Assembly (NCBI GenBank): GCA_039802265.1
Contig: JBDRWI010000048.1
Coordinates: 1 to 16,822 of the forward strand
DNA length: 16,822 nt
Direction: 5' to 3'
Source of the DNA: a candidate division WOR-3 bacterium
GTDB lineage: Bacteria; Hydrothermota; Tepidihabitantia; SM23-42; JAOAFX01
Part shown: positions 3,559 through 9,881 of the stretch, piece by piece
How positions within the stretch are numbered: the first letter of the stretch is position 1
Layout of the letters: each line of letters starts with the position of its first letter
Program-made: the position numbers and the translations under genes
Notes under the pieces: model-generated
Database searches by the model: none
What the model saw: only the letters and a program-made list of their open reading frames with translations
Told to the model about the DNA's origin: nothing

Positions 3559-5076
3559 TTGCAACTCCCTTTAATATTAATCTCTGCTTTATTATGTTCT
3601 CTATCTTTCCACCCCCTGAACTTACATTTTTTTGCCTGGTTTGGTCTTTTGCCACTTTTATTCACAATTGAAAAGGCAAAATTATCCAAGGTCTTTTTAA
3701 ATGGAATCCTGTTTGGTTTTTTCTTTTCACTTTTTTCGCTCTTCTGGATTATCTTTTTACAGATTGAGACCAGTGTTAAACTACTAATGCTTTTGGGTAT
3801 GGTGGTGATGTTCTTTTATATTGGGTTATACTACGGTACTGGCTTTCTGATTACAAGGCTCATCGGTATCTGGTATCTTCCGTTTATCTTAGCCGGTCTT
3901 GAATTCTTAAAGGGACTGGGTGAGATTGGCTTTCCCTGGCTCTCTTTTGGTTATTCGCAGGCGCGCTATCCGATAATAATTCAGCAGGCATCGATCTACG
4001 GGGTCTATGGAATTTCTTTCTGGCTCTATTTAATCAATGTCACACTCTTTAATTTTTTAAGAAACAAAAATTTCAAAAATCTCCTGTTTGTGCTTTTGTT
4101 CTTCTTTCTCCCTTTGGGGTACGGCTTCATAAGAATCAAGGATATCCCCGCGGGCTTTAAAAAAATCACCGTGGGCATAGTGCAACCCAATATTGACCCC
4201 AATCTGAAATTCAACGCCGCATTGAGGGATGAGACATTTAATCGGTTAATCTATCTCTCGGAAAGATGTAAAGAAGAGGCAGAAGATACATTAAATTTAG
4301 TCGTTTGGCCCGAGACGGCAACGCCGGTCTTCTTAAAGACTCCGGGTATCTATCAGAATATGGTCTTGGAACTTGCCCGCCGCATCAGTGCACCGGTTCT
4401 GACCGGCACGCCAATCTACAATAAAAAATCTCAGGAAATTTATAATGGAGCAGTATTAATAAAGCCCGAGGAGGGCATAACCCAGGAGTATAAAAAGATA
4501 CATCTGGTTCCATTTGGTGAACACATTCCCTTTGACCGCTATATTCCACTCTTTAAAAAAATTGACCTGGGTGAAGGTGACTATACACCCGGAAATGAAT
4601 ATACTGTGTTTGCTACAGATGATTTGAAGTTTTCATGTCTGATATGTTTTGAATCGATCTTCCCGGAAATTTCGCGCACATTTGTGAAACACGGTGCCTT
4701 ACTGCTTTTGAATATCACCAATGATGGCTGGTTCGGAAGAATCTCCGGACCACAACAACACAATGATATGGCAATTCTGCGGACGGTGGAAAATGGCGTA
4801 CCTTTGGTCCGCAGTGCTAATACCGGGATATCAATGGTGGTTGACCCTTATGGTCGGATATTGAAGGAGACAAATCTCTTTGAGGAAGGAATTATTGTCT
4901 GCACAATTGAGTTAAATAGAATCAACACATTATACAGAATATTGGGCGACTGGCTGCCAATGTTTGTGCTCTTATTTACACCGGTTTTATTATTATTAAA
5001 AAAACCGCGGTTATTTCTTAATGTCCTCAGGAAGCGGGTCAATCACCAGTTGAATTGTCGTCCTTCTTGCCTTTGA
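3559..5076 (+). CDS. lnt: Apolipoprotein N-acyltransferase
   Basis: N-terminal TM helices, GFPW..GYSQ, VQPNI, catalytic E (WPET), K (KIHLVPFGE), C (ICFES), NITNDGWFG, QH, RSANTGIS; TTG start directly after the upstream TAA. Confidence 0.95.
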   Translation: MQLPLILISALLCSLSFHPLNLHFFAWFGLLPLLFTIEKAKLSKVFLNGILFGFFFSLFSLFWIIFLQIETSVKLLMLLGMVVMFFYIGLYYGTGFLITRLIGIWYLPFILAGLEFLKGLGEIGFPWLSFGYSQARYPIIIQQASIYGVYGISFWLYLINVTLFNFLRNKNFKNLLFVLLFFFLPLGYGFIRIKDIPAGFKKITVGIVQPNIDPNLKFNAALRDETFNRLIYLSERCKEEAEDTLNLVVWPETATPVFLKTPGIYQNMVLELARRISAPVLTGTPIYNKKSQEIYNGAVLIKPEEGITQEYKKIHLVPFGEHIPFDRYIPLFKKIDLGEGDYTPGNEYTVFATDDLKFSCLICFESIFPEISRTFVKHGALLLLNITNDGWFGRISGPQQHNDMAILRTVENGVPLVRSANTGISMVVDPYGRILKETNLFEEGIIVCTIELNRINTLYRILGDWLPMFVLLFTPVLLLLKKPRLFLNVLRKRVNHQLNCRPSCL

Positions 5077-5505
5077 ATAATTGTTATAACTTGAGAATTC
5101 ATAGTCCCCGGGGTCCTGTGTCAACTTCCTCTCCACGGGCAGGTGGTGCATAAACTCTAAATGGCTCTTCAATGTCTTTATGTCCTCTATTACCTCGGCA
5201 TCAAAACTCTGTGACCAGACCGTTCCTTCCCTCTTTTTTACCTCATTGTATTTCCGGGCAAAATTTCCTTTTATCAGTTTCATAATCTTCGAGATATTGA
5301 ACATCCTGCCCGGTTGAATTATCAAATAGAAAGATTCGGGCATAATGAGATAGCCATATATCCGGTAGTTGAGCATATAGCGATGATAACCAATAGACAA
5401 AACCAAAAATCTTGCCCAGTGCGGGTCGTTAAAAATTTCTGTACAATCCTTGGTTGTGGTCCAGATGTAGTATATGGCATCGGGTTTTATTATTCTCTTT
5501 GCCAT
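5011..5505 (-). CDS. RAYT/IS200-like (Y1 HUH) transposase-fold protein with degenerate active site
   Basis: Scaffold motifs Y..T, IF.D, GYLIMP, ISKIMK.IKG, N....R.G.VW...F....I, PV...L...P.DY.FSSY; HUH reads SFY and catalytic YIH.NP reads FMHHLP; AGGAG RBS overlaps the upstream stop. Confidence 0.8.
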   Translation of the reverse strand: MAKRIIKPDAIYYIWTTTKDCTEIFNDPHWARFLVLSIGYHRYMLNYRIYGYLIMPESFYLIIQPGRMFNISKIMKLIKGNFARKYNEVKKREGTVWSQSFDAEVIEDIKTLKSHLEFMHHLPVERKLTQDPGDYEFSSYNNYSKARRTTIQLVIDPLPEDIKK

Positions 5506-5514
5506 TTTTGACTC

Positions 5515-6582
5515 CTATCTGAGTAATTGCTCCATTGCCTCCGCATCCAGATTTTTAACAATCAGAACGATCAGTTTTAAAAGATTTTCATAATCTTCAT
5601 AAGAGATGATGCTTGCTGCTGAGTGAACATATCTTGTAGGGATACCCAGTGCCAGACTGGGGACACCAATATTGGTGAGATGTATTGCACCGGTGTCATA
5701 ACCACCCTTTATTGATGTGAGATGATAGGGTATGTTATTCAACTCGGCAAGCTCGATAACAAAGTTCTTTAAATTGGTATGGGGAATCATCGTTCGGTCA
5801 TAGATCAAAATGCCAACGCCGGAGCCGAGTTTTTCAATTGCCTCGGAACTGTTCCCCGGTGTGTCACGGGAAATGCTCACATCAAGGGCAAAGGCAAAGT
5901 CCGGTTGAATCAAATTGGCTGAGGTCCTTGCCCCGCGCAGTCCCACCTCTTCCTGGACCGTTCCTACAAGGTAGACCGTATTGGGATGCGGAGTCGCAAC
6001 AAGTTCATCAAGTAAATTAACAAGCAGGGCACAACCCATCCGGTCATCCCATGCCTTGCTCATTAAAATATCACCATCAGCCATTTCTTCAAATTGACCG
6101 ATGGGCATAATCGGATCACCGGGTCTTATTCCTAACTTTTCAGCGGGGTGGCAATTTTTTGTTACTCCCACATCTATGTACATATTTTCAATATCAGGGA
6201 GTTTCTTTCTCTCCTCCGGAGGCAGTTCATGGATCGGCTTCAACCCTATCACACCCGGAAAAAGCTCGCCCTTTCGATTTTTTATCTTCACGCGCAAACC
6301 CGGTAGATTTCCATCCCACCAGCCACCGATTGGTAGAAATTTTATGAAACCTTCTTTTGTGATTTCCTTTACCATAAAGCCAATCTCATCCATATGGGCA
6401 GCAAACATTATCTTCGGGCTTTCTGATGCTCCATTTTTCTTTGCAATCAAACTCCCAATTCGGTCTCTGGAAACCTCGGCCTTGTTTTCAAATCTCCTTT
6501 TTAATATCTCAACAACCTCATCTTCATAGCCTGAAATACCAAAGGCCTGTGATAGTTCTTTCAGGACTTCTTTGTGGTCCAT
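5515..6582 (-). CDS. M42-family (TET/glutamyl) metallo-aminopeptidase
   Basis: G.SG.E, AAHMDEIG, KAWDDR.G, TVQEEVGLRGA, ALDV, GG.D, RYVHS; AAGGAGG RBS. Confidence 0.93.
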   Translation of the reverse strand: MDHKEVLKELSQAFGISGYEDEVVEILKRRFENKAEVSRDRIGSLIAKKNGASESPKIMFAAHMDEIGFMVKEITKEGFIKFLPIGGWWDGNLPGLRVKIKNRKGELFPGVIGLKPIHELPPEERKKLPDIENMYIDVGVTKNCHPAEKLGIRPGDPIMPIGQFEEMADGDILMSKAWDDRMGCALLVNLLDELVATPHPNTVYLVGTVQEEVGLRGARTSANLIQPDFAFALDVSISRDTPGNSSEAIEKLGSGVGILIYDRTMIPHTNLKNFVIELAELNNIPYHLTSIKGGYDTGAIHLTNIGVPSLALGIPTRYVHSAASIISYEDYENLLKLIVLIVKNLDAEAMEQLLR

Positions 6583-6596
6583 TTGTTCCTCCTTAA

Positions 6597-8513
6597 TTAT
6601 ACATCCAGATTTACCACAAATTTCGCATTCTCTTCAATAAATTTCCTTCGTGGTTCAACCTCATCACCCATAAGGATAGAAAATAGCCTGTCGGCTTCAG
6701 CCGCATCTTCCATCGTCACTTTTTTCAAAATGCGCCGCTGGGGGTCCATAGTCGTCTGCCAGAGTTGTTCTGGATTCATCTCTCCCAGTCCTTTGTAGCG
6801 TTGTATATCATATTTCTCATTAGGGTTTTTCTTCAAAAATTTCTGTAGTTCCTCATCTGAATAGAGATATGCCTCTTTTTTATCGTATCTTATGCGATAA
6901 AGTGGTGGCTGGGCTATGTATATGACACCGGCATCAATCAATTCGCGCATAAATCTGAAGAAAAATGTCAAAAGCAGGGTTCGGATATGGGCACCATCAA
7001 CATCCGCATCGGTCATAATTATTATCTTTTTGTAGCGCAACTTTGAGATGTCAAAATCATCCTCACCGATACCACAGCCAATTGCTGAAATTAGGGTTCT
7101 GATCTCTTCATTGCCGAGGATTTTGTTGAGGCTGCTCTTTTCAACATTCAAAATCTTACCGCGCAGTGGTAAGATTGCCTGAAATGTCCGATCTCTTCCC
7201 TGTTTGGCACTGCCACCGGCCGAGTCCCCCTCAACGACAAATATCTCACTCTCATCTGGATTCTGGGAAGAACAATCAGCAAGTTTACCTGGTAGGAAGT
7301 CACTGTCAATCAGCGATTTTCTCCTCGTCAATTCCCGCGCCTTCCTTGCCGCCTCCCGAGACTTCGCAGCAGTGAGGACCTTGTTGATAATTACGGAGGC
7401 GATTCGAGGATTCTCCTCAAGGAATGCGGATAACTTTTCATTCACTAACGATTCAACAGCGCCCTTTGCCTCGGGATTTCCCAGTTTGGTCTTGGTCTGT
7501 CCTTCAAATTGTGGTTCCCTGATCTTTACTGAAATAACCGCAGTCAGTCCTTCCCGGGTGTCTTCACCAGTAAATACGAGATCTTCCTTTAACTGATTAT
7601 GGCGTCGGGCATAGTCATTTAAAGTTCGGGTAAGTGCCGATTTGAAGCCAACAAGATGGGTACCTCCTTCGTGGGTATTGATTGTATTGGCAAAGGTGAA
7701 GATGTTTTCTAAATAGGAGTCGTTATATTCCATTGCTACTTCAATCTCAATGCCATTTACGGTTTCGTGAAAATAGCATGGCTTATGCAGACGCTGACGA
7801 CCTGAGTCAAGAAACTTCACCAGGTCAACAACCCCGCCGGTGGAAAAGAACCTTTCTTTATATCCAGACTTCACATCCTCAAAATCAATCTTTAAGCCTT
7901 TATTCAAAAAGGCAAGTTCCCGCAGGCGCTGGACAATTATCTCCTTACTGAATTCAACCTTTTTGAAGATTTCTTTATCGGGTTTGAATCTAATCTTTGT
8001 TCCGGTTTTCTTTGTCTTGCCGATGACCTTGACACTATCCTGAGGCTCGCCCTTTTTATAAGCCTGATAGAATATCTTTCCATCGCGATAGACCTCGGCC
8101 TCAAGAAACTCACAGAGGGCATTCACCGCACTTACTCCCACACCATGCAATCCACCGCTGATCCGATAGACCTTATCGTCAAATTTACCACCCGCATGGA
8201 GCATTGTAAGGACAACTTCAAGGGCTGATTTCTTCTGGGTTGGATGGATATCGGTAGGAATTCCCCGGCCATTATCTTCAACTTCAACTACATCCTTGTC
8301 TACTGTAACCCTTATATAATCACAATAACCTGCAAGTGCCTCATCAATACTGTTATCAACCACCTCAAATATCAGATGGTGTAAACCCCTTACTCCTACA
8401 TCACCGATATACATCGCCGGCCGGCGTCGTACTGCCTCAAGTCCCTTTAAAATCTGAATCTTTGAGGCATCGTAAAGGTCATTTGCTTTTACCGTATCTT
8501 CTTTTTCAGTCAT
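6597..8513 (-). CDS. gyrB: DNA gyrase subunit B (short type)
   Basis: GLEAVRRRPAMYIG, EVVDNSIDE, LHAGGKF, GGLHGVG, FEGQTKTKLGN, VEGDSAGGSAKQGR, PLRGK, MTDADVDG, RYKGLGEMN, C-terminal NLDV; sits next to recF. Confidence 0.97.
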   Translation of the reverse strand: MTEKEDTVKANDLYDASKIQILKGLEAVRRRPAMYIGDVGVRGLHHLIFEVVDNSIDEALAGYCDYIRVTVDKDVVEVEDNGRGIPTDIHPTQKKSALEVVLTMLHAGGKFDDKVYRISGGLHGVGVSAVNALCEFLEAEVYRDGKIFYQAYKKGEPQDSVKVIGKTKKTGTKIRFKPDKEIFKKVEFSKEIIVQRLRELAFLNKGLKIDFEDVKSGYKERFFSTGGVVDLVKFLDSGRQRLHKPCYFHETVNGIEIEVAMEYNDSYLENIFTFANTINTHEGGTHLVGFKSALTRTLNDYARRHNQLKEDLVFTGEDTREGLTAVISVKIREPQFEGQTKTKLGNPEAKGAVESLVNEKLSAFLEENPRIASVIINKVLTAAKSREAARKARELTRRKSLIDSDFLPGKLADCSSQNPDESEIFVVEGDSAGGSAKQGRDRTFQAILPLRGKILNVEKSSLNKILGNEEIRTLISAIGCGIGEDDFDISKLRYKKIIIMTDADVDGAHIRTLLLTFFFRFMRELIDAGVIYIAQPPLYRIRYDKKEAYLYSDEELQKFLKKNPNEKYDIQRYKGLGEMNPEQLWQTTMDPQRRILKKVTMEDAAEADRLFSILMGDEVEPRRKFIEENAKFVVNLDV

Positions 8514-8525
8514 ACACTCTCCTTA

Positions 8526-8810
8526 TCAACCAATTTTAAATTTGATATCCTTTAAATTAAAACCTAAATCATTTATTTTCTTTAGAATCCGGTCCTTCAT
8601 TAAGAATAATTGCGCCTTCCAGACCGGGTTGTCAACACTTACATAGAGATTATCGGTATCCATGCTGGTTGCCCGCGTGTGCCTTGCGATGCGTTCACCA
8701 ACAATCTGGGGCCATTTCTCAATGATTATATAGTCCTTGATTTTTTCCTCCAGTGCCATATTTTTTACAATCCGTTGAAGAATCTTATCTATCCTTTCAG
8801 GAGACTTCAA
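8526..8810 (-). CDS. dciA: DUF721 / DciA-family replicative helicase-loader-like protein
   Basis: W..IVG..IA.HT......L.V.VD...W..QL......IL.KIN pattern, in the usual position between recF and gyrB. Start moved from 8870 to TTG at 8810 (MKSPERID...), which overlaps the recF stop. Confidence 0.8.
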   Translation of the reverse strand: MKSPERIDKILQRIVKNMALEEKIKDYIIIEKWPQIVGERIARHTRATSMDTDNLYVSVDNPVWKAQLFLMKDRILKKINDLGFNLKDIKFKIG

Positions 8811-9846
8811 CCTGCCCGCCTTGAATAAAAAATCTTTTTTTAACCATCTTTTTTGTGCAGTTGTCCTCATTTACAGTGGCGTAAAAAATTTGCCCGGAAA
8901 GCATATCAAAAAGGGCTTCTTTCCTCTTTTGATCAAGCTCACTCGCCGCTTCATCAAGAAGGAGGATGGGTTTGCCTCCAAGTTTTTCCTGGAGTATTTC
9001 AGACTCAGCAATCTTTAATGCAATTGCTGATAGACGAACTTCACCATCAGAACCAAAATCCTTTATAGGACGGCGATTACGGATTATTAAAATATCATCA
9101 CGATGGGGACCAATACCGGTTATTTTATATTTAATATCCTCGGGCTCTCTTTCTTTCAATAACTCAAGGTCAAGTTGCATCTTAAATGTTGAATCCCGAT
9201 ATTCCATATCTAATCCATTCAACCCAAGAGTCTGTCCGACCCCGACAAACTTTTCTTTAAGGACCGGTATAATTTTTCCCCTTTCTTTGTAAATCTCATT
9301 TCCATAATGAATCATTTGTTCATTTATTACATTCAGAAGTTCAATATCAATATCTGTCTGATCCATTTGCAGGAGGCAGTTTCGTTGTCTCAAAATTCTC
9401 CGGTATTCACTCAAATTTACCAGATAGTTAGGGTTCAACTTAGAAATGAGCCAGTCCAGAAAGGCCCTCCTCCTTGATGGTGTTCCCCGGAGAATCCAGA
9501 CATCATCAAGGGAAAAGATGCATACTGCAAGCCAGCCAATAAATTCGCTGAGCCGGTTTTTCTCCACACCCCCCAAGGTCAACCGCTTCTCACCGTTATA
9601 GAAGATATTTGCTTCAGTTTTATCAGATTTTGCCTGAATCCGCAAAGATGGCTCATTGAACTTCAACAGATTACGCTCATCATTTGTGCGAAAGGAACGG
9701 GTATAGGCGGAGAAGAAGATCGCCTCCAATAGATTGGTCTTACCTGCCCCGTTGGGACCGATTATTAGATTTAATTGGTCAGAAAACTCAAGACGATTAT
9801 CCACCAGATTGCGAAAACCGTTGTATTCAATCTTTTGTAGTATCAT
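8797..9846 (-). CDS. recF: DNA replication/repair protein RecF
   Basis: FRNL, Walker A GPNGAGKTNLLEAI, SFR, G.PS.RR.FLD, Y...L.QRN.LL, GPHRDD, GS.GE, PILLLDE..SELD. ATG 9846 preferred over 9852 because of promoter geometry. Confidence 0.93.
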   Translation of the reverse strand: MILQKIEYNGFRNLVDNRLEFSDQLNLIIGPNGAGKTNLLEAIFFSAYTRSFRTNDERNLLKFNEPSLRIQAKSDKTEANIFYNGEKRLTLGGVEKNRLSEFIGWLAVCIFSLDDVWILRGTPSRRRAFLDWLISKLNPNYLVNLSEYRRILRQRNCLLQMDQTDIDIELLNVINEQMIHYGNEIYKERGKIIPVLKEKFVGVGQTLGLNGLDMEYRDSTFKMQLDLELLKEREPEDIKYKITGIGPHRDDILIIRNRRPIKDFGSDGEVRLSAIALKIAESEILQEKLGGKPILLLDEAASELDQKRKEALFDMLSGQIFYATVNEDNCTKKMVKKRFFIQGGQVEVS

Positions 9847-9853
9847 TAACATT

Positions 9854-9881
9854 ATTATATATATTTTTTCAAAAAAGTCAA
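9854..9881 (-). promoter_or_regulatory. sigma70-type promoter of recF operon
   Basis: TTGACT (9881-9876)-N16-TATAAT (9859-9854); ATG 9846 follows after 7 nt, at the expected +1. Confidence 0.7.

Follow-up and report, generated by a model that had tools for sequence, protein, structure and literature searches.

A catalytically dead, domesticated RAYT at the end of the recF-dciA-gyrB operon of candidate division WOR-3 bacteria

Gene content of the locus

The stretch of DNA analysed here (the window; 16,822 nt, contig JBDRWI010000048.1 of assembly GCA_039802265.1) comes from a candidate division WOR-3 bacterium. It contains a 164-aa open reading frame (ORF), P0001 (5011..5505), whose profile and structure matches identify it as a gene of the RAYT (repetitive extragenic palindrome (REP)-associated tyrosine transposase, TnpA-REP) fold that is catalytically dead. 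This gene, hereafter the dead RAYT, is the last in a same-strand run comprising recF, dciA, gyrB and an M42 peptidase, and all features of this run given below lie on the minus strand. The M42 aminopeptidase gene (5515..6582), gyrB (6597..8513) and dciA (8526..8870) were assigned by domain scan. The first gene of the operon encodes a recF-like SMC/AAA ATPase (8797..9852), named from its RecF/RecN/SMC domain and its operon position. Ahead of it lies a sigma-70 consensus promoter, TTGACT-16-TATAAT (9854..9881), which matches the consensus at 11 of 12 positions and has both boxes recognisable by eye in orthologous loci. This promoter likely drives a single transcript through to the dead RAYT. From one RNA sequencing run, 0 reads mapped to this DNA, and from a second run just two short fragments of foreign origin did, which has no bearing on expression either way.

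The ORF contains no frameshift, and the segments MPESFY (S58, Y60), VWSQ and FMHHLP (F118) read as an earlier model-made interpretation, the sequence-only reading, had given them. The AGGAG ribosome-binding site described there (5512..5516) overlaps the M42 stop codon, which is separated from the ATG of the dead RAYT by 9 nt. A purine-rich ribosome-binding site precedes the ATG in 24/24 loci printed, and the upstream gap is 8-13 nt in the orthologous loci, while the downstream gap is not conserved. At its 3' end, the gene overlaps the convergent lnt ORF by 66 nt (5011-5076), or by 43 nt in a congeneric genome, and no terminator-like site was found between the two genes. The absence of mobile-element features was likewise borne out. 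No ORF of tnpB size lies near the gene, and 16-mers at and around it occur at most twice in the genome, as expected if insertion sequence ends and REP hairpins do not flank it. A local repeat scan around the gene detected no GTAG hairpin, only short AT-rich or coding inverted repeats.

Fold and comparison with related proteins

The dead RAYT scored 24.7 bits against the Pfam family Y1_Tnp (cut-off 23). Against the NCBIfam model REP_Tyr_transpos (NF047646), it reached 75 bits and narrowly missed the curated RAYT threshold of 80, as expected because the catalytic columns are lost. The AlphaFold model of the 164-aa protein (pLDDT 83, pTM 0.83) found its best structural match in TnpA-REP of E. coli, 4ER8 (Foldseek E 5e-7; Z 16.0, rmsd 2.8 A over 142 residues), the next match being at Z 9.4. 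Hidden Markov model and structure prediction therefore agree on the Y1_Tnp fold. The Y1 HUH core and the catalytic helix in cis that mark the RAYT fold are both present, and the profile match has an E-value of 6e-9. Profiles were required for this assignment, since a direct phmmer search of solved structures gave no relevant match. An Atlas search returned Y1_Tnp clusters only, and the PADLOC anti-phage models (2023 library) gave no match at E 0.01.

With E. coli TnpA-REP, as described by Messing et al. 2012 (PMC3479197), the dead RAYT shares the fold and the catalytic helix in cis, the W, P and SS landmarks, a basic helix C and its status as a single-copy chromosomal gene. It differs in lacking the HUH motif, the third metal ligand, the GTAG-reading residues and flanking REPs, and its Tyr column is free to vary. 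Furthermore, 4ER8 is a monomer, whereas the dead RAYT is a predicted homodimer joined through helix B. The IS200/IS605 transposases (IS608, ISDra2) have the Y1 HUH core in common (Z 8-9) and are also dimeric, but they dimerise via shared beta-sheets rather than the helix B predicted here. Membership of that group, which is marked by a Y-x-x-x-Q motif, subterminal hairpins, tnpB and multiple copies, is not supported, as the dead RAYT scores 15 bits against NF033573 (cut-off 55), is not mobile, occurs as one copy and has neither element ends nor tnpB. It does not belong to a REPtron either, because REP hairpins do not flank the locus. The nuclease-dead TnpB repressors known as TldR (PMC10705468) provide an analogy only, as another case of a transposon nuclease kept after the loss of catalysis. 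They are RNA-guided and have an unrelated TnpB fold, while the dead RAYT has a Y1 HUH fold and no known guide RNA, no covariance search having been made for one. Judged from its sequence, the dead RAYT resembles the DNA-binding half of a RAYT and does not qualify as an active RAYT or an IS200 element.

Loss of catalytic and GTAG-reading residues

In 4ER8, the metal ligands are H59, H61, N119, H123 and E161, and the nucleophile is Y115 (PMC3479197). In a profile alignment, H59, H61, Y115 and N119 correspond to S58, Y60, F118 and L122 of the dead RAYT. The former HUH motif, now S58-F59-Y60 (5326..5334), has Ser at its first position in 59/59 orthologues, and position 60 is Y in 57, H in 1 and N in 1. 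The segment F118-L122 (5140..5154) holds the former catalytic Tyr and the former third metal ligand Asn. In the orthologue alignment, the Tyr column contains Y in 39, H in 17, F in 2 and R in 1, while Asn is found at position 122 in 0/59 (L, Q, E or M instead) and the Pro of the YxxxNP motif is kept in 59/59. As expected, the Tyr is often present yet varies freely because its chemistry is gone. The proposal that HUH and Tyr were both lost across the family thus holds for the HUH motif (S58 in all 59, His60 in one) but not for the Tyr, which 39 of the 59 keep. Since F118 is not the state of the family, the description of the protein as dead rests on the lost metal ligands and not on the Tyr.

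A second loss, beyond the HUH and Tyr changes recognised earlier, concerns the GTAG pocket. According to the alignment with the E. coli enzyme, the former GTAG-reading region covers W97-E107 (5185..5217), and the GTAG-contacting residues Q95, W99, E100 and R104 correspond here to S98, D102, A103 and E107. The 14 closest active relatives, selected as HUH/Y-intact and with P0068 excluded, keep H, H, Y and N as well as Q, D/E and R/K in 14/14 cases. In a wider alignment, H/H/Y are kept in 138 of 155 rows, the other 17 including four rows of the dead family and two truncated ones. With the GTAG-reading residues lost, canonical REP recognition would be gone too, and its persistence is unlikely.

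Distribution, synteny and inheritance

The homologue search yielded 72 matches among 79 candidates. Of these, 58 were near full length at 71-95% identity, several of them named as WOR-3 proteins, and the next full-length tier lay at 37-43%. In the host order (48 genomes), we identified 39 full-length orthologues and 2 fragments cut by an assembly gap, so that the dead RAYT is present in 41 of the 46 genomes of WOR-3 families f1 (15/15) and f2 (26/31) and in 0/2 genomes of family f3. The match in a 42nd genome is a different RAYT of 319 aa. The five f2 genomes without the gene are 76-91% complete; four also lack an M42 orthologue, and in the fifth M42 runs off the contig end. These five cases look like assembly gaps. 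The gene is single copy except in one genome (6% contamination), which has two, each behind its own M42. Of 28 other full-length loci retrieved, 27 include DNA upstream of the gene, and M42 is the immediate upstream neighbour in every one of these. Downstream, the neighbour varies and may be a ComM-like ATPase, a methyltransferase or lnt.

Over 24 genomes, the mean identity was 79% for the dead RAYT, 73% for M42, 84% for GyrB, 52% for RecF and 55% for DciA, with one row each dropped for M42 and DciA (N or stop in the match). The dead RAYT is therefore more conserved than three of its four operon neighbours. Pairwise dN/dS was usable in 12 of 276 pairs (median 0.039, maximum 0.18), and because synonymous sites are near saturation (mean pS 0.79) we relied on the codon-model omega, which was 0.033 for the dead RAYT and 0.055 for M42, indicating strong purifying selection. 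No frameshift or internal stop was found in 40 full-length matches, the two flagged stops being natural ends. In a comparison by hand with one related-strain contig, the listed in-gene differences were all synonymous (5/5); 21 further differences over the whole stretch fall outside that listing. Of the 11 splits with bootstrap of at least 85 in the dead-RAYT tree, 9 recur in the tree of GyrB; for the remaining 2, that tree has no supported split that contradicts them, in agreement with vertical inheritance.

Origin from an active RAYT family

The closest intact relatives, 39-46% identical, are RAYTs of Elusimicrobiota, Spirochaetota and Auribacterota (L071-L079) in unrelated neighbourhoods, and a parent-type RAYT, P0221, occurs in one WOR-3 genome of the host family. 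These active parents share the RFL..I.YH.Y and IKGNFARKYN segments and the Q..ID tail with the dead family, and fall in the same part of the tree (support 82 in a 79-row tree calculated in quick mode, with 12 dead-family rows). Unlike the dead family, they retain H/H/Y/N and Q/D/R, have REPs on their flanks and in many cases contain in-frame inserts. Their REPs are double-foot GTAG...CTAC palindromes with a TTAA loop, detected by script at 8 of 9 loci and by eye at the ninth. A separate tree places the dead proteins in a single clade (100/100), whose stem measures 0.88 changes/site and whose inner branches are short, a shape read here as a burst of change followed by constraint. As seen from these sequences, the dead RAYT descends from an active RAYT family flanked by GTAG REPs. 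The parents, L071-L079 together with P0221, have double-foot REPs as in subclass 2.4 of Quentin et al. 2018 (PMC6006769) but carry the SS motif and inserts between helix C and strand 4, and they fit no single subclass, as defined in that survey, cleanly.

Outside the host order, gyrB and M42 are adjacent without a RAYT in 4/4 genomes with an M42 orthologue, and the gene after M42 is EF-G-like in three of them and a different unrelated gene in the fourth. M42 also lies beside an EF-G-like gene in one f3 genome. Most likely, judging from this gene order, the RAYT entered behind M42 in the common ancestor of f1 and f2, into an older gyrB-M42 operon. The idea that M42 and the RAYT arrived together, prompted by f3, in which gyrB is the last gene of the operon, was rejected on the basis of the same four genomes. 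In f3, the place occupied by M42 and the RAYT in f1 and f2 holds a fusion of an RQC domain and a Tpt1/KptA RNA 2'-phosphotransferase, convergent to gyrB (L053:8635-9771 and L052:5335-6462; the L053 copy was scanned).

Conserved surfaces and predicted dimer

Two helices are close to invariant. Helix B (residues 28-47; 5365..5424) is invariant at 13 of 20 positions in the 59 orthologues and supplies the bulk of the predicted homodimer interface (33, 36, 37, 39, 40, 42-44). Helix C (residues 72-92; 5230..5292) is invariant at 15 of 21 positions, contains the basic residues K76, K79, R84, K85 and K90, and is equivalent to the helix that contacts the hairpin minor groove in 4ER8. Mean conservation was 0.96 for helix B, 0.97 for helix C and 0.96 for the tail from YEFSS to QLVID, compared with 0.66 for the former catalytic helix. 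Relative to the group average, helix B rose from 0.88 in the parents to 1.12 in the dead family, and the catalytic helix fell from 0.98 to 0.77. The E. coli hairpin contacts R78, K81, Q83 and T85 correspond to the invariant K76, K79, N81 and A83, and H86 to R/K84. The median pI of the family is 9.3.

A two-copy prediction gave a symmetric dimer joined via positions 33, 36, 37, 39, 40, 42-44, 81 and 85. Its score was 0.53, against 0.01 for the best of 3 controls, and the runs share at least 75% of contacts with pLDDT of at least 82. In calibration, 20 of 30 solved one-chain pairs attained this mark, as did 1 of 23 single-chain proteins. In this predicted arrangement, the B helices of the two subunits pack against each other, and helix C borders the interface. 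Nine of the 10 interface positions are invariant, compared with 57 of 164 across the whole protein. Positions 36, 43 and 44 are mostly polar in the broad family and already hydrophobic in the parents, and the active parent family may itself dimerise through helix B. New conserved features include the invariant tail residues R147-R148 and Q152-L153-V154 and the conserved T16-T18-K19, for which no obvious role at the old DNA site is apparent, and the polar residues C21 (56/59), E23 (57/59), H29 (59/59), E88 and N141. A clamp-binding motif in the tail was considered and rejected, its spacing being off the published consensus.

Further observations at the locus and in related genomes

At the start of the operon (window 9846-9881) and in f1 relatives, the recF -10 box ends ~7 nt before an in-frame ATG without a Shine-Dalgarno sequence, which suggests a leaderless recF mRNA. 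An operator-like inverted repeat, TTTTC-N3-GAAAA, in the spacer of the recF promoter was rejected as a conserved element, as it was seen by eye in only about one third of 24 loci. The dnaA-dnaN pair sits on another contig (C22), detached from recF-dciA-gyrB (recF at window 8797-9852).

No intact short RAYT was found in the host assembly (G000), which is 89% complete. It does encode two HUH-intact RAYT-like proteins of ~290 aa (C65:2441-3313 and C56:164-1033; L031, L032), in which Y-I-H-R-Q replaces Y-x-x-x-N-P and a C-terminal extension is present; the C65 gene is bracketed by long inverted repeats. The same genome contains ~20-29 copies of an AT-rich double-hairpin element (e.g. C6:48610-48700, C9, C87). 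Either of two fixed sequences comes after the element, which is often located at contig ends. It resembles a repeat of non-GTAG type representing an end of a collapsed insertion sequence or the site at which such a sequence prefers to insert.

Other damaged RAYTs were also observed. In another WOR-3 order, protein P0075 of genome G238 (L163:9191-9649) is an intact-ORF RAYT with Q-x-H in place of HUH and R-I-H-T-L-P in place of the Tyr motif. Its gene has a ribosome-binding site and ends an unrelated operon before a terminator-like hairpin, without REPs. As a candidate deeper orthologue, P0075 has its best matches in the dead family; its operon is a different one, however, and its tree placement is next to an active protein, with weak support (80/68). 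It may be either an independent inactivation or a relocated deep relative. P0086 (with P0222 and P0223) and P0110 form a further HUH/Tyr-damaged RAYT-like pair, which groups together (94/96) apart from the dead family.

Proposed function and alternatives

The protein is RAYT-derived, lacks the residues for catalysis and guide reading, and is single-copy, vertically inherited and strongly conserved. That the gene is a dead, domesticated RAYT can be stated with high confidence (probability about 0.93). The sequence-only reading had proposed an exapted hairpin-binding protein; its core, comprising the fold, vertical inheritance, conserved synteny, loss of HUH and purifying selection, has been substantiated, while the specific roles offered with it are less well supported. 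Regarding mechanism, we lean towards a host protein that acts as a predicted homodimer, binding but not cutting hairpin or palindromic DNA. The gene is the last of a recF-dciA-gyrB-M42 operon that predates it, and in outgroups its place is empty. Along the long stem branch it lost the two HUH histidines, the third of the metal ligands and the pocket for GTAG, after which change was very slow. Co-transcription from the recF promoter would give steady housekeeping expression. The two invariant basic C helices of the dimer may grip a two-fold symmetric stem by its backbone, without a GTAG foot, and candidate stems include a cruciform arm, a lagging-strand hairpin and a palindromic site. By binding DNA, the protein would play a structural or regulatory role. 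The near-invariance of helix C, which binds DNA in RAYTs, makes hairpin binding plausible.

Several observations weigh against this mechanism. No conserved hairpin flanks the gene, whether in the genome 16-mers, the orthologous loci or the local repeat scan. The E. coli enzyme cannot bind its hairpin without the GTAG contacts, whose residues are lost here, and GTAG-independent binding has been reported for group 3 enzymes only. Three contacts of the E. coli enzyme, R46, K82 and R97, are not kept, their counterparts being L45, G80 and S100. The dimer is a model that used a custom alignment, so that the calibration of its score holds only roughly. The interface stripe is also largely inherited from the active parents and no invention of the dead clade. 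Finally, helix-C residues N81 and K85 fall inside the predicted interface, so dimerisation may partly cover the old DNA surface and explain its conservation without DNA binding.

This overlap leads to an alternative, itself unlikely, in which the protein binds no DNA hairpin and its conserved surfaces function instead in dimerisation and in contacts with a protein partner, or in the binding of structured RNA. R147-R148, Q152-L153-V154 and T16-T18-K19, whose conservation the old DNA site does not readily explain, would fit such a partner. However, K73, K76, K79, K90 and other basic helix-C residues outside the interface are invariant, and a nucleic-acid surface suits them better than a protein-only role; DNA and RNA as the ligand are indistinguishable from these data. 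An adaptor role at replication-fork hairpins, on behalf of gyrase, RecF, DciA or the sliding clamp, would suit the invariant QLV in the tail and the retention of the gene in the recF-dciA-gyrB operon in every locus seen; IS200-type transposases are thought to contact the clamp (PMC6006769). QLVID(S/P)L nevertheless mismatches the clamp consensus QL[SD]LF given there, an unrelated peptidase and, in outgroups, an EF-G-like gene are members of the operon too, and the gyrB-M42 adjacency is older than the RAYT. Because the RAYT landed in a pre-existing, mixed operon, its position is explained by the landing site, which weakens a gyrase-specific reading; the earlier suggestion of a link to gyrase, RecF or DciA gains nothing from it, and we consider the adaptor rather improbable.

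A further alternative is a guard against REPtrons, in which the dead RAYT masks REP hairpins or pairs with incoming RAYTs of the parent type to give inactive heterodimers. The helix-B stripe (F33, Y40, Y43, hydrophobic 44, N81, K85) is common to the active parents, making mixed dimers conceivable. In addition, a GTAG REP whose C-TTNA-G loop resembles that of the parents' REPs is present in 35 copies in the host genome, in an assembly where no intact short RAYT was detected. This REP family is common to the host family (G000; G204, G066, G163). Across the order, however, its copy number per genome varies between 0 and 101 and is unrelated to the dead gene, with 0 copies in 16 of 31 f2 genomes and 3 in one f3 genome without the gene, and the parent-type REP pattern is no commoner than the control. 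An intact parent-type RAYT was found in 1 of 48 genomes (G204), beside the dead gene's lineage, and is unharmed there. As REP-flanked genes often remain unassembled, the RAYT and REP counts are lower bounds. The loss of the GTAG-reading residues and the very slow evolution, unlike an arms race, also speak against a guard, which we regard as doubtful. The related suggestion of a dominant-negative inhibitor of active TnpA finds few targets. The new conserved polar residues C21, E23, H29, E88 and N141 and the Tyr in 39/59 could point to an enzyme with a rebuilt active site or new chemistry. This is a long shot, as H, F and R all occur in the Tyr column, the metal site has kept neither a His pair nor the Asn, and the former catalytic helix is the least conserved element. 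Least credible is a recently inactivated relic hitch-hiking in an essential operon. The gene is indeed embedded in such an operon, but an omega of 0.033 with near-saturated synonymous sites refutes this unless the alignments are wrong, and 40 full-length matches without frameshift or internal stop, together with a conservation above that of three of four neighbours, speak against it as well.

Implications for RAYT domestication

The dead RAYT can be compared with the domesticated RAYTs of Bertels et al. 2017 (PMC5581495), whose general discussion of RAYT domestication describes genes that are likewise single copy, inherited like housekeeping genes and proposed to benefit the host. The proteins treated there and in the TnpA-Y1 survey of Quentin et al. 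2018 are catalytically intact, which the dead RAYT is not. In that survey, sequences without HUH or Y, the class to which the dead RAYT belongs, were set aside as probably non-functional. Surveys that discard HUH-less sequences in this way filter out such genes by design. The literature search, which did not extend to supplements and most subscription journals, turned up no paper describing a dead RAYT that is conserved.

Tentatively, and with the odds somewhat against it, nuclease-dead RAYTs may form a recurrent, undescribed class of DNA-structure-binding regulators, an HUH counterpart of TldR. This family would then be a helix-B homodimer, an assembly unseen in solved Y1 structures, in which GTAG-guided cutting was exchanged for symmetric hairpin or cruciform binding by a near-core gene co-expressed with gyrase. 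Although the hosts are uncultured, the protein is small, basic and well folded and has a close active parent (P0221 with its REPs), making a comparison of dead and active forms feasible. Why RAYTs persist as single-copy genes is described as an open question by Bertels et al. 2017. Here, a RAYT is kept more strictly than RecF, DciA and the M42 peptidase without cutting chemistry, a GTAG pocket or REPs, and the host benefit can therefore lie in binding alone.

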